From Escherichia coli (GTDB lineage: Bacteria > Pseudomonadota > Gammaproteobacteria > Enterobacterales > Enterobacteriaceae): a stretch of DNA of 14,611 bases. Under the pieces are notes generated by a model. It saw only the letters and a program-made list of their open reading frames with translations, was not told where the DNA came from and did not search any database. Within the stretch, counting starts at the first letter, position 1; the number at the start of each line of letters is the position of its first letter. This document shows positions 6,556-7,535 of the stretch, one piece after another. The position numbers and the translations under genes were made by a program. Where the stretch lies: assembly GCF_003334255.1 (NCBI RefSeq), contig NZ_QOWU01000079.1; one strand, written 5' to 3'.

Positions 6556-7535
6556 GCCGTTACGCCCCCACACCGGAAGTTATGGCTATTGGTCAAATTA
6601 ATATTTCCGGCAATGTTACACCTGCGACCTGGTGGAAATATATTCGACTACCCAGTGGGCGTCCGGATGCGACGGCTATCGCTCTGCTTTCAGAGATCGT
6701 TTACTGGTACCGCCCGACAGAGGTCAGGGATGAGCACACCGGAGCGTTGCTGGGATATCGCAAGCGTTTTCAGGGCGACAAACTGCAAAGAAGCTACCAG
6801 GCGTTTGCTGAGCAGTTTGGTTTCGGGAAAAGGGAAACCGCAGATGCGCTGAAGCGTCTGCGCGATGCAGGGTTTATTACTCTGGATTTACGCACGGTGG
6901 AAATGCTCGATGGGGTGAAATGCAGCAATATTTTGTTTGTCGGGATCAACCCACAGGCAATTGCGGCCATCACCACACCTTCTTCTGTTTCGCCAGAAAG
7001 TAACAGCAATAATGCAATCAGCGATACAGCTATTACGTTAAAACGGAACACCCCCCGACGTCATAACGGAACAGGGGATACGCCGAATGTTGATACAAAT
7101 ACAGAGATTACTACAGAGATTACAACGGAGACTAAAAACACTATTGATGCATCCGCTGACGCGTCTGCGCCAGCGCGTTCTGCCCGACAGGAATATTCAC
7201 CGGAATTTGAACAGGCCTGGCAGGAATATCCCAAACGTGCTGGTGGCAATTCAAAATCAGCAGCCTTCAAAGCCTGGAAAGCCCGTTTGAACGAGGGGGT
7301 AAACCCCGAAACCATGCTGGAAGGTGTGAAACGCTACGCGGGCTGGGTATCTGCGATGGGCAATAGCGGCACACAATTTGTGAAACAGGCTGTCACGTTC
7401 TTTGGTCCGGATCGTCATTTCGAAGAATCCTGGGAAGTTCCTGCGGTATCTGCAGCCAGACGCGAGGACCCGTACTTCAAAGCCAGTTACGACAACGTGG
7501 ACTACAGCCAGATCCCGACAGGATTCAGGGGGTGA
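6552..7535 (+). CDS. phage replication initiation protein (replisome organiser-like N-terminus; conserved phage C-terminal FxxAWxxYPKR...KAWKARL domain), 327 aa
   Basis: AGGAGG RBS; N-terminal DNA-binding-like region; C-terminal motif EFEQAWQEYPKRAGGNSKSAAFKAWKARL typical of phage replication/primosomal proteins; internal 12-bp tandem repeats (see the repeat feature). Confidence 0.65.
   Translation: MSRYAPTPEVMAIGQINISGNVTPATWWKYIRLPSGRPDATAIALLSEIVYWYRPTEVRDEHTGALLGYRKRFQGDKLQRSYQAFAEQFGFGKRETADALKRLRDAGFITLDLRTVEMLDGVKCSNILFVGINPQAIAAITTPSSVSPESNSNNAISDTAITLKRNTPRRHNGTGDTPNVDTNTEITTEITTETKNTIDASADASAPARSARQEYSPEFEQAWQEYPKRAGGNSKSAAFKAWKARLNEGVNPETMLEGVKRYAGWVSAMGNSGTQFVKQAVTFFGPDRHFEESWEVPAVSAARREDPYFKASYDNVDYSQIPTGFRG
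7101..7136 (+). repeat. three tandem 12-bp iteron-like repeats (ACAGAGATTACT / ACAGAGATTACA / ACGGAGACTAAA) inside the replication gene, followed by an A-rich stretch
   Basis: Seen directly; encodes TEITTEITTETK in a Ser/Thr-rich linker. Lambdoid origins commonly lie within the initiator gene as iterons plus an AT-rich region. Confidence 0.4.

Follow-up and report, generated by a model that had tools for sequence, protein, structure and literature searches.

A candidate replication origin within the initiator gene of an Escherichia coli prophage, combining lineage-variable palindromes with a near-invariant 12-bp tandem array

Where does a prophage begin to replicate when short repeats lie inside its own initiator gene, and how is the replicative helicase brought there if no gene for a helicase loader follows? 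We address this question for a 14,611-nucleotide stretch of Escherichia coli DNA (RefSeq assembly GCF_003334255.1, contig NZ_QOWU01000079.1; hereafter the window), which is the early-right region of an SfV/CPS-53-type lambdoid prophage and encodes a 327-residue replication initiator. An earlier reading of the sequence (the original prediction) had proposed a candidate origin inside the initiator gene, marked by iteron-like 12-bp repeats. Our analysis indicates that positions 7025-7140 are probably the theta-type replication origin of this prophage, located within the linker-coding part of its own initiator gene. Comparison among relatives further shows the putative origin to be two-tiered, with lineage-variable imperfect palindromes of 22-23 bp followed by a near-invariant tandem array of the 12-mer TACAGAGAWTAC. 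A candidate origin at this place is well supported by comparison, namely by its layout, by selection at the level of DNA and by the exchange of the segment as a module. Features are listed in Table 1.

Table 1. Features of the initiator gene and its surroundings (positions in the window)
Feature	Position	Strand	Remark
cI	3293-3985	minus	cro also present
YmfL/cII-like gene and Rha-family gene	4890-6038		followed by two small open reading frames, then the initiator gene
Initiator gene, 327 amino acids	6552-7535	+	N-terminal winged-helix domain, origin-encoded linker, putative DnaD-like C-domain, DnaT-like tail
N-domain coding region, residues 1-141	6552-6974	+	helical subdomain with invariant YW motif, then winged helix-turn-helix
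Isolated 12-mer-like site TACAGCTATTAC	7025-7036	+	left of and overlapping iteron 1; 2 mismatches
Candidate iteron 1, TTACGTTAAAACGGAACA, core ACGTTAAAACGG	7033-7050	+	direct repeat with iteron 2
Candidate iteron 2, CGACGTCATAACGGAACA, core ACGTCATAACGG	7056-7073	+	direct repeat with iteron 1
Degenerate third iteron position, GATACGCCGAATGTTGAT	7079-7096	+	weak; not significant alone
Least stable 60-bp duplex of the initiator gene	7085-7144	.	nearest-neighbour free-energy scan; GC 0.32
12-bp tandem array, 2 perfect copies and 1 degenerate	7100-7135	+	Tandem Repeats Finder, pattern search
Mosaic junction	7141	.	start of similarity to SfV, mEp460, cdtI and Stx2a-phage initiators
Conserved C-domain core, about residues 213-298	7188-7445	+	protein alignment; common to SfV-type initiators and other-tail variants
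C-terminal tail REDPYFKASYDNVDYSQIPTGFRG	7461-7532	+	E. coli DnaT C-terminus matched by the last 9 residues (7506-7532)

The initiator matches PHROG family phrog_270 ('replication initiation protein', E 8.5e-76) and is named 'replication protein' in RefSeq; it has no significant match in Pfam (a weak HTH_36 hit, E 0.11) and none in NCBIfam or in a search of PDB sequences. AlphaFold modelled the N-domain, about residues 1-140, as a winged helix (pLDDT 85.7), with the recognition helix predicted at residues 93-105. The C-terminal part matches phrog_1701 ('DnaD-like helicase loader', E 2.4e-35) and the primosomal phrog_9327 (7e-18), while the C-domain has neither a Pfam DnaB_2 match nor a PDB sequence match. 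The repeats had been placed in the linker between the two domains, and both the N-domain model and the C-domain alignment bear this out.

The array consists of TACAGAGATTAC at 7100-7111, a second TACAGAGATTAC at 7112-7123 and AACGGAGACTAA at 7124-7135 (8/12 matching), and encodes TEIT-TEIT-TETK (residues 183-195). It is the array that the original prediction gave as 7101-7136, here shifted into codon phase. The repeat is real, and of the three consecutive units described two are perfect tandem copies and the third is degenerate. Tandem Repeats Finder reports it at 7100-7131, with a period of 12, 2.7 copies, 90% matches and a score of 50. A perfect tandem duplication of a 12-mer is expected by chance about 14,600/4^12 times, or ~1e-3 per window. 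When up to 2 mismatches are allowed the 12-mer pattern occurs at 3 sites in the window, all within the initiator gene, against an expectation of 0.64; the isolated site to the left of iteron 1 scores 12.7 bits and is the third-best weight-matrix match in the whole window. Neither pattern search nor weight matrix found a second copy of the array or of the iterons in the 14.6 kb. The A-rich tract that had been noted after the repeats (AAAAACACTATTGATG) is present directly 3' of the array and is common only to close E. coli relatives; as it is not conserved in diverged homologues, we dropped it as a feature. The number of perfect 12-mers is polymorphic in E. coli prophages (7100-7123 in the window; also L004, L040 and L154), with 1 copy at one locus, 2 copies at 102, 3 at 20 and 4 at 2, some loci being counted twice between scans.

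To place the array in its family we collected relatives in two IMG/VR scans, the first of which gave only near-identical E. coli copies, whereas the second was led by a Bacillus sequence for diversity. The 92 distinct genes obtained were reduced to 18 lineages with less than 90% N-domain identity. In nearly all of these, 3-6 imperfect palindromes stand 22-23 bp apart at the same position in the gene, and their half-sites are lineage-specific (the types include TGACGTTnnAACGTCA, TACGTTnnAACGTA, TTACCn5GGTAA, TCACTTTnAAAAGTGA and CCCCATTTnAAAAGGGG). Immediately 3' of the palindromes there follows, again in nearly all lineages, GACAAA-TACAGAGAWTAC-TACAGAGAWTAC; the 12-mers are shared by 17 of the 18. 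The best autocorrelation lag 5' of the array was 22 or 23 in every lineage, and in 16/18 it exceeded that of every other window of the gene. The two candidate iterons of our window match in position the 22-23-bp iterons of the relatives, are 88% identical at a spacing of 23 bp, and are read in different frames (ITLKRN versus RRHNGT). The degenerate third position falls in the slot of the last iteron of a relative (L122), with the left half-site ACGCC retained and the right half decayed.

The half-sites also appear to follow the predicted recognition helix. Residue 94, the third of that helix and Arg94 in the window, is Arg wherever the half-sites are of the ACG type; where they are not, most lineages have Lys, Ile, Gln or Leu instead. 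The residue switches within both the Acinetobacter-like and the Bacillus-like groups. The exceptions are L117 and L162, which have Arg94 with different repeats, though both repeats hold a G or an ACGG element. This covariation is suggestive, the lineages being uncorrected for phylogeny. By these comparisons it is the 22-23-bp palindromes that behave as specificity iterons and not the 12-mers, and the palindromic sites at 7033-7073 are likely the better iteron candidates in the window. As a separate observation, an E. coli-type IMG/VR contig (L293) has an extra C between the iterons (equivalent to 7051-7056; 7 C versus 6), which splits the initiator reading frame with the DNA module intact and could be a sequencing error or the mark of a decayed prophage.

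A second line of evidence comes from the mosaic structure of the gene. In a megablast search of phage genomes, 73 phage records matched only from query base 590 (window 7141) onwards, at 92-94% identity. Upstream of this junction the SfV initiator, orf39, has another N-domain (of the HTH_36 type), other iterons and another 12-mer. In the other direction, there are E. coli prophages that share the N-domain and linker (93-94% identity) and bear other C-terminal tails, and in these sister prophages genes for a DnaC-like ATPase and a DnaB-like helicase follow. The junction and the tail-swapped sisters together imply that the N-domain and the repeats travel as one unit, and joint exchange of this kind is the classical behaviour of an initiator/origin specificity module. 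The same N-terminal half of the replication gene occurs in about 226 of 5,426 complete E. coli genomes, and N-domain homologues with 43-54% identity were found in phages of Acinetobacter, Bacillus and Geobacillus.

The 12-mer array reaches well beyond this N-domain family. An exact-pattern scan of IMG/VR located it in at least 120 contigs; 111 of the 120 matches listed have at least 110 open codons upstream in frame, and only 58 of the open reading frames match the N-domain profile of the window. The carriers fall into about eight N-domain subfamilies, defined by at least 40% identity together with hhalign (single-linkage clustering at E 1e-6 had fused all carriers into one family), the three larger ones besides the window's own being remote homologues at hhalign probabilities of 91%, 89% and 97%. 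Carriers from these subfamilies are PHROG 'replication initiation', 'O-like' or 'DnaD-like' proteins and cross-match the family of the window. BLAST places the array in 139 or more phage records, where it nearly always coincides with a replication-initiator gene; the hosts include Acinetobacter, Bacillus, Staphylococcus, Klebsiella, Pseudomonas, Burkholderia, Xanthomonas and Synechococcus, and Stx1a and Stx2a phages are among the carriers too. It was also found in 94 plasmid records, and across phage and plasmid records most matches fall in annotated initiator genes; the hosts of the phages and plasmids carrying the same 12-mer further include Escherichia and Nostoc. Our literature search, which left most subscription journals outside its scope, returned no description of the 12-mer or of any 12-bp element in phage initiator genes, the text matches being unrelated primers.

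Several individual carriers deserve mention. Two IMG/VR contigs (L209 and L286) encode array-bearing initiators with an HNH-endonuclease-like insert (CGCCGK...FDHKHP...H..N) upstream of the iterons. On a 143-kb plasmid of B. subtilis (NZ_CP032873.1; L298 830-2320), a 496-residue 'hypothetical protein' gene holds about nine alternating 22-23-bp repeats, GAAACTTCAAAATGAAG and GAACCTGCGAAATGAAG, and then a degenerating 12-mer array, TACCAGAGATTAC TACAGATATTAC; this gene is probably the initiator and origin of the plasmid. The small rolling-circle, mobilizable Bacillus plasmid pBSG3 (NC_014104.1; L299 733-845) has a non-coding module of three 22-23-bp repeats and three TACAGAGATTAC units. The module lies about 540 bp upstream of the plasmid's rolling-circle rep gene, with no matching initiator gene near it, and might serve as a natural decoy for phage origins or be an origin that hitch-hikes.

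Initiators of the HTH_36 type present the same two-tier layout in phages of Shigella, Pseudomonas, Vibrio, Aggregatibacter and Psychrobacter (SfV orf39, L002 2845-2996; L173-L176): lineage-specific palindromic repeats, AGAACCAGTCACTCTT, and then a conserved 12-mer of their own, GAACCAGTCAAW, whatever the C-domain. Since the window and SfV have a common C-domain and different 12-mers, the type of 12-mer goes with the N-domain superfamily, irrespective of C-domain and host.

What, then, are the 12-mers? The original prediction treated them as iteron-like, and in its strict form this view would have each 12-mer bound as double-stranded DNA, with the 23-bp repeats accessory or irrelevant. In its favour, the array is the repeat that stands out most and is better conserved than any other stretch of the gene; beyond the 23-bp repeats, at 7025, there is a third 12-mer-like site; and the 12-mer type tracks the N-domain superfamily. 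Iterons, however, set specificity and co-vary with their initiator, and the 12-mers are the same across lineages that differ in recognition helix and upstream repeats, and in remote subfamilies as well, which argues that they are not strict iterons; on this point the proposal was not borne out. Abutting 12-bp units would also leave little room for one winged-helix dimer each, and in SPP1 and lambda it is the short repeats or the AT-rich tract beside the binding sites that form the unwinding region (PMC6316719, PMC7466680). We accordingly judge this explanation unlikely.

Could the reader of the 12-mer instead be a component common to all hosts, for instance SSB, primase, RNA polymerase or the replicative helicase? 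The occurrence of one 12-mer in phages of Firmicutes, Proteobacteria and Cyanobacteria speaks for this, as does the variety of helicase-loading partners among the carriers (DnaB only, a G39P-like loader with DnaB, an IstB/DnaC-like ATPase, or none). We nevertheless find it quite improbable: HTH_36-type initiators in the same hosts, even some with the same C-domain, use GAACCAGTCAAW, so that the motif tracks the N-domain superfamily of the initiator and not the host, and no known host-factor consensus (DnaA box, IHF) matches the 12-mer.

The array lies in the least stable 60 bp of the initiator gene (z 2.76), which is the fifth least stable non-overlapping 60-mer of the 14.6-kb window and has an A-rich top strand (AT skew +0.42). 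From this position, and by analogy with SPP1 oriL, ori-lambda and pSK41, the 12-mers can be read as an unwinding or assembly element, an assignment that we favour tentatively, at somewhat less than an even chance; they could alternatively be a second class of duplex binding site. A different proposal would accept the segment as a genuine initiator-binding element and place the start of replication elsewhere in the prophage, the repeats serving autoregulation, copy control by handcuffing, incompatibility or as a decoy. Initiator-binding repeats in or near rep genes often do serve control as well, the stand-alone copy in pBSG3 looks more like a decoy or hitch-hiker than like that plasmid's own origin, and SPP1 has a second origin, oriR, away from its initiator gene 38 (PMC6316719). 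In every characterised analogue, however, the in-gene repeats are the origin (ori-lambda, SPP1 oriL and pSK41; PMC7466680, PMC6316719, PMC5703833), and here the array is the easiest-melting part of the gene and, like the iterons, has no second copy in the window. A purely regulatory element is thus very improbable.

The evidence that the segment is constrained as DNA is of several kinds. Among 45 12-mer units from 17 lineages, positions 1, 4, 7 and 10, all of them third codon positions, are conserved at 100%, 100%, 91% and 98%, and the few substitutions seen at positions 7 and 10 are other than the silent ones. Variation centres on position 5, where G or A encodes Glu or Lys, and on position 9, where T, A, C or G encodes Ile, Asn, Thr or Ser. 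At 26 conserved N-domain residues in the 18 lineages the commonest codon accounts for 52% of usage, and for 28-45% at most four-fold degenerate sites, which means that silent sites elsewhere are saturated. Codon bias offers no explanation, as the genes of the window outside the array use all four Thr codons and favour GAA, whereas the array uses GAG. In one lineage (L119) a 2-bp insertion shifts a 12-mer copy into another frame, and the DNA sequence of that copy is kept. The iterons, given their spacing of 22-23 bp, are necessarily read in different frames (MTLERQ, CDVETS and VLRSNV in a Geobacillus phage). In a set of 50 E. coli-type variants the N-domain has a nucleotide diversity of 0.03-0.056 and positions 7062-7099 have one of 0.003, while 7092-7127, with 0.000, are the minimum of the gene; this minimum falls in what should be the least constrained peptide of the initiator. 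These comparisons show that the segment is selected as DNA and not as peptide. The view that the repeat is a low-complexity TEIT linker produced by slippage and devoid of DNA function can point to a hydrophilic, Thr/Glu-rich peptide, a copy number of 1 to 4 in E. coli and a constant frame, but is hardly credible, since the invariant silent positions beside varying amino-acid-changing ones, the intact frame-shifted copy, the iteron frames, the diversity minimum and the non-coding copy in pBSG3 exclude a mere coding linker, and the variable coding stretch without nucleotide conservation that had been named as the alternative is contradicted by the codon analysis.

How might the helicase be recruited? 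The original prediction had remarked that no helicase-loader gene follows the initiator and suggested a search of the rest of the prophage for P-, DnaC- or DnaB-like genes. Annotation of the downstream genes agrees with the remark, and neither the window nor the annotated 18 kb surrounding the locus in a near-identical prophage contains a gene for a helicase or a loader. A lead is offered by the C-terminus of the initiator, which ends in SQIPTGFRG where E. coli DnaT ends in SQIPPGFRG (8/9 identical, BLASTP E 0.003). The same 24-residue tail is also attached to unrelated lambda-O-C-like domains, and a variant in relatives, ISEPDTEIPPGFRG, is still closer to the VSEPDSQIPPGFRG of DnaT; the search for C-domain homologues gave mostly fragments and was used for these tail variants only. 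Apart from the tail the C-domain shows no similarity to DnaT by BLASTP or PDB sequence search. As only the last nine residues are aligned, the initiator is not a member of the DnaT family and merely possesses a DnaT-like C-terminal peptide. We compared 59 distinct E. coli loci sharing this N-domain and origin: after the GFRG tail PerC comes next and a loader gene is lacking (19/19), and after other tails comes a gene for a DnaC-like ATPase (40/40). DnaT (primosomal protein I) is the adaptor between the PriA-PriB complex and DnaB-DnaC in PriA-dependent restart, although how it recruits them is not known (PMC4132743, PMC5778457). The match to the host DnaT terminus suggests that the tail might recruit host DnaB-DnaC, a possibility that we regard as plausible but put forward with caution. 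Within the literature scope given above, we found no earlier description of such DnaT-tail mimicry, which would provide a handle on how DnaT itself hands over to DnaB-DnaC.

A working model can be assembled from these parts. Dimers of the winged-helix N-domain would bind the palindromes at 7033-7050 and 7056-7073, and perhaps the decayed one at 7079-7096, through the recognition helix (Arg94 with ACG half-sites). Binding would load stress onto the adjoining 12-mer array in the easiest-melting 60 bp of the gene, and the array would be opened and/or held by a conserved part of the initiator, in the manner of the 13-mers, the DnaA-trios or the element recognised by DnaD at chromosomal origins, or else of the AT-rich regions in ori-lambda and SPP1 oriL. 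With its SQIPTGFRG tail, the putative DnaD-like C-domain would then bring in the host DnaB-DnaC complex, which would explain why the prophage has no helicase or loader gene of its own. It is tempting to go further, in a speculation that we consider rather less likely than not, and to propose that the TACAGAGAWTAC array is an undescribed sequence-specific core element of origins used by winged-helix/DnaD-like phage and plasmid initiators of Firmicutes, Proteobacteria and Cyanobacteria. Its reader would be the invariant N-terminal subdomain, rich in aromatic residues, which would probably take it in single-stranded form; the array would mark the place of helicase loading, and here, together with the DnaT peptide mimic, it would load host DnaB-DnaC without a phage loader. 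If this is true, mobile elements would have in the array their counterpart to DnaA-trios and to the DnaD recognition element, and the combination would also point to the binding partner of DnaT's own tail.

Several observations weigh against the segment being an origin that works in this way. The lineage of the window is one of the two exceptions in the autocorrelation analysis, its lag-23 value of 0.39 being equalled by 5 of 63 other windows of the gene, and its iterons are the weakest of the family, with two good copies and the one nearest the array decayed. At GC 0.32 the array region is only moderately AT-rich, and the window has four other places that melt more easily. A search of 6000-8100 found neither an IHF consensus nor a DnaA box, with up to 1 mismatch allowed for the latter. 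The 12-mer copy number ranges from 1 to 4 with no visible penalty, and the array always stands in the T-E-x-T frame, which makes some constraint from the peptide or from common descent possible. The DnaT link consists of nine residues, and the association of tails with neighbouring genes could reflect genetic linkage. Finally, the prophage type, SfV/CPS-53-like, is related to the 'Eru' replication modules of Shiga-toxin phages, and according to the papers on these modules nothing is known about how they replicate (PMC8951638).

With these reservations, the origin map, the candidate binding code (Arg94 with ACG) and the recruitment lead make this prophage type testable. A 12-bp motif that is kept, silent positions included, in initiators diverged beyond BLAST recognition and in different phyla would point to a strongly constrained contact in origin opening, and the motif is of practical use as a marker for origins in phage and plasmid genomes.

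The genomic surroundings are those of an early-right region, with genes 3' of the initiator for a PerC-family regulator, a Dam methylase, a LexA-like protein, RusA, KilA-N, DUF968/HNH and Q. Directly 5' of the initiator gene, and overlapping it via ATGA, is a 99-residue open reading frame (6256-6555, + strand) that is a stand-alone copy of the other initiator N-domain, that of the HTH_36/SfV type: it matches the SfV orf39 N-domain by BLASTP (E 7e-6) and positions 3-93 of the 223 in phrog_4617 ('replication initiation protein'), with a weak Pfam HTH_Crp_2 hit. It has no linker, origin or C-domain, is missing from one relative (L007), and may either have been left behind when a module was replaced or act as a small regulator. 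Tandem Repeats Finder listed further short tandem repeats at 3636-3665 (within the cI repressor gene), 12212-12230, 12501-12521 and 12848-12874, with periods of 9-11 and 2-3 copies.

How does the candidate origin compare with systems already described? In our view it belongs to a known type of origin in an uncharacterised family, and the features that we could not find described elsewhere are the near-invariant cross-phyla 12-mer array and the mimicry of the DnaT tail. The closest parallel in layout is oriL of phage SPP1, which likewise lies within the linker-coding part of an initiator gene (gene 38, encoding the replisome organizer G38P) whose C-domain is DnaD-like. SPP1 oriL comprises initiator-bound direct repeats together with an AT-rich unwinding element of short tandem repeats (PMC6316719), and in the gene 38 sequence we see ~11-bp repeats of the GAAAAAGACAC type followed, at the equivalent place, by 9-bp AACAATGAT tandems. 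Geobacillus phage PT9.1 carries a homologue of the window N-domain in an SPP1-like operon with a G39P-like loader and DnaB helicase. SPP1 differs in the sequence and period of its repeats and in providing its own loader G39P and helicase G40P, neither of which the prophage encodes. A BLASTP comparison of the N-domain with SPP1 G38P was not significant, and the likeness is one of analogy only.

Phage lambda, to which the locus had originally been likened, offers a comparable arrangement, with palindromic iterons in the middle of the gene bound by the initiator N-domain and then an easily opened A-rich region. In lambda, too, N-domain and origin form an exchangeable specificity module and the C-terminal part recruits the helicase. 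Two iterons and the AT-rich region suffice there for unwinding and for replication in vitro, and O binds AT-rich single strands (PMC7466680). The differences are that the prophage has no P gene and that the iteron spacing in its family is 22-23 bp. Homology of the N-domain to lambda O was considered and rejected (hhalign probability 0.5%, no Pfam Phage_rep_O match), the initiator having weak PHROG 'O-like' matches (phrog_391 9e-8, phrog_678 6e-5). The 12-mers also look like parts of the lambda AT-rich region by eye (TACAAAAGA, AAAAGATTAT), but the weight matrix has no significant match there; within 1.8 kb of lambda its highest score, 10.2 bits at another place in gene O, stays below the 95th percentile of shuffles (12.5). 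The parallel with lambda therefore stands for an origin layout inside the initiator gene and is limited to analogy, without detectable homology to O or to the AT-rich region.

An N-terminal winged-helix domain is shared with the DnaD-like and RepA_N-like replisome organizers. In pSK41 the Rep boxes bound by the N-domain of Rep lie midway along the rep gene itself, and the linker that they encode is dispensable for the protein (PMC5703833). The RepA_N initiators (pSK41 Rep, pLS32 RepN) and the chimeric pPR9 Rep differ in being plasmid initiators, and the prophage protein has no Pfam RepA_N match; the C-domain of pSK41 Rep binds DnaG primase, whereas the window tail mimics DnaT. A last comparison is with chromosomal origins, in which DnaA or DnaD read short origin repeats as single strands, thereby opening the origin and directing helicase loading (PMC10201434, PMC6669920); DnaD of B. 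subtilis, for example, recognises a specific motif of the unwinding region in single-stranded form (PMC10201434). The oriC 13-mers, the DnaA-trios and the DnaD recognition element resemble the 12-mer array in being short repeated motifs beside the double-strand sites of an initiator, and differ from it in sequence, in period (12 bp here) and in reader.

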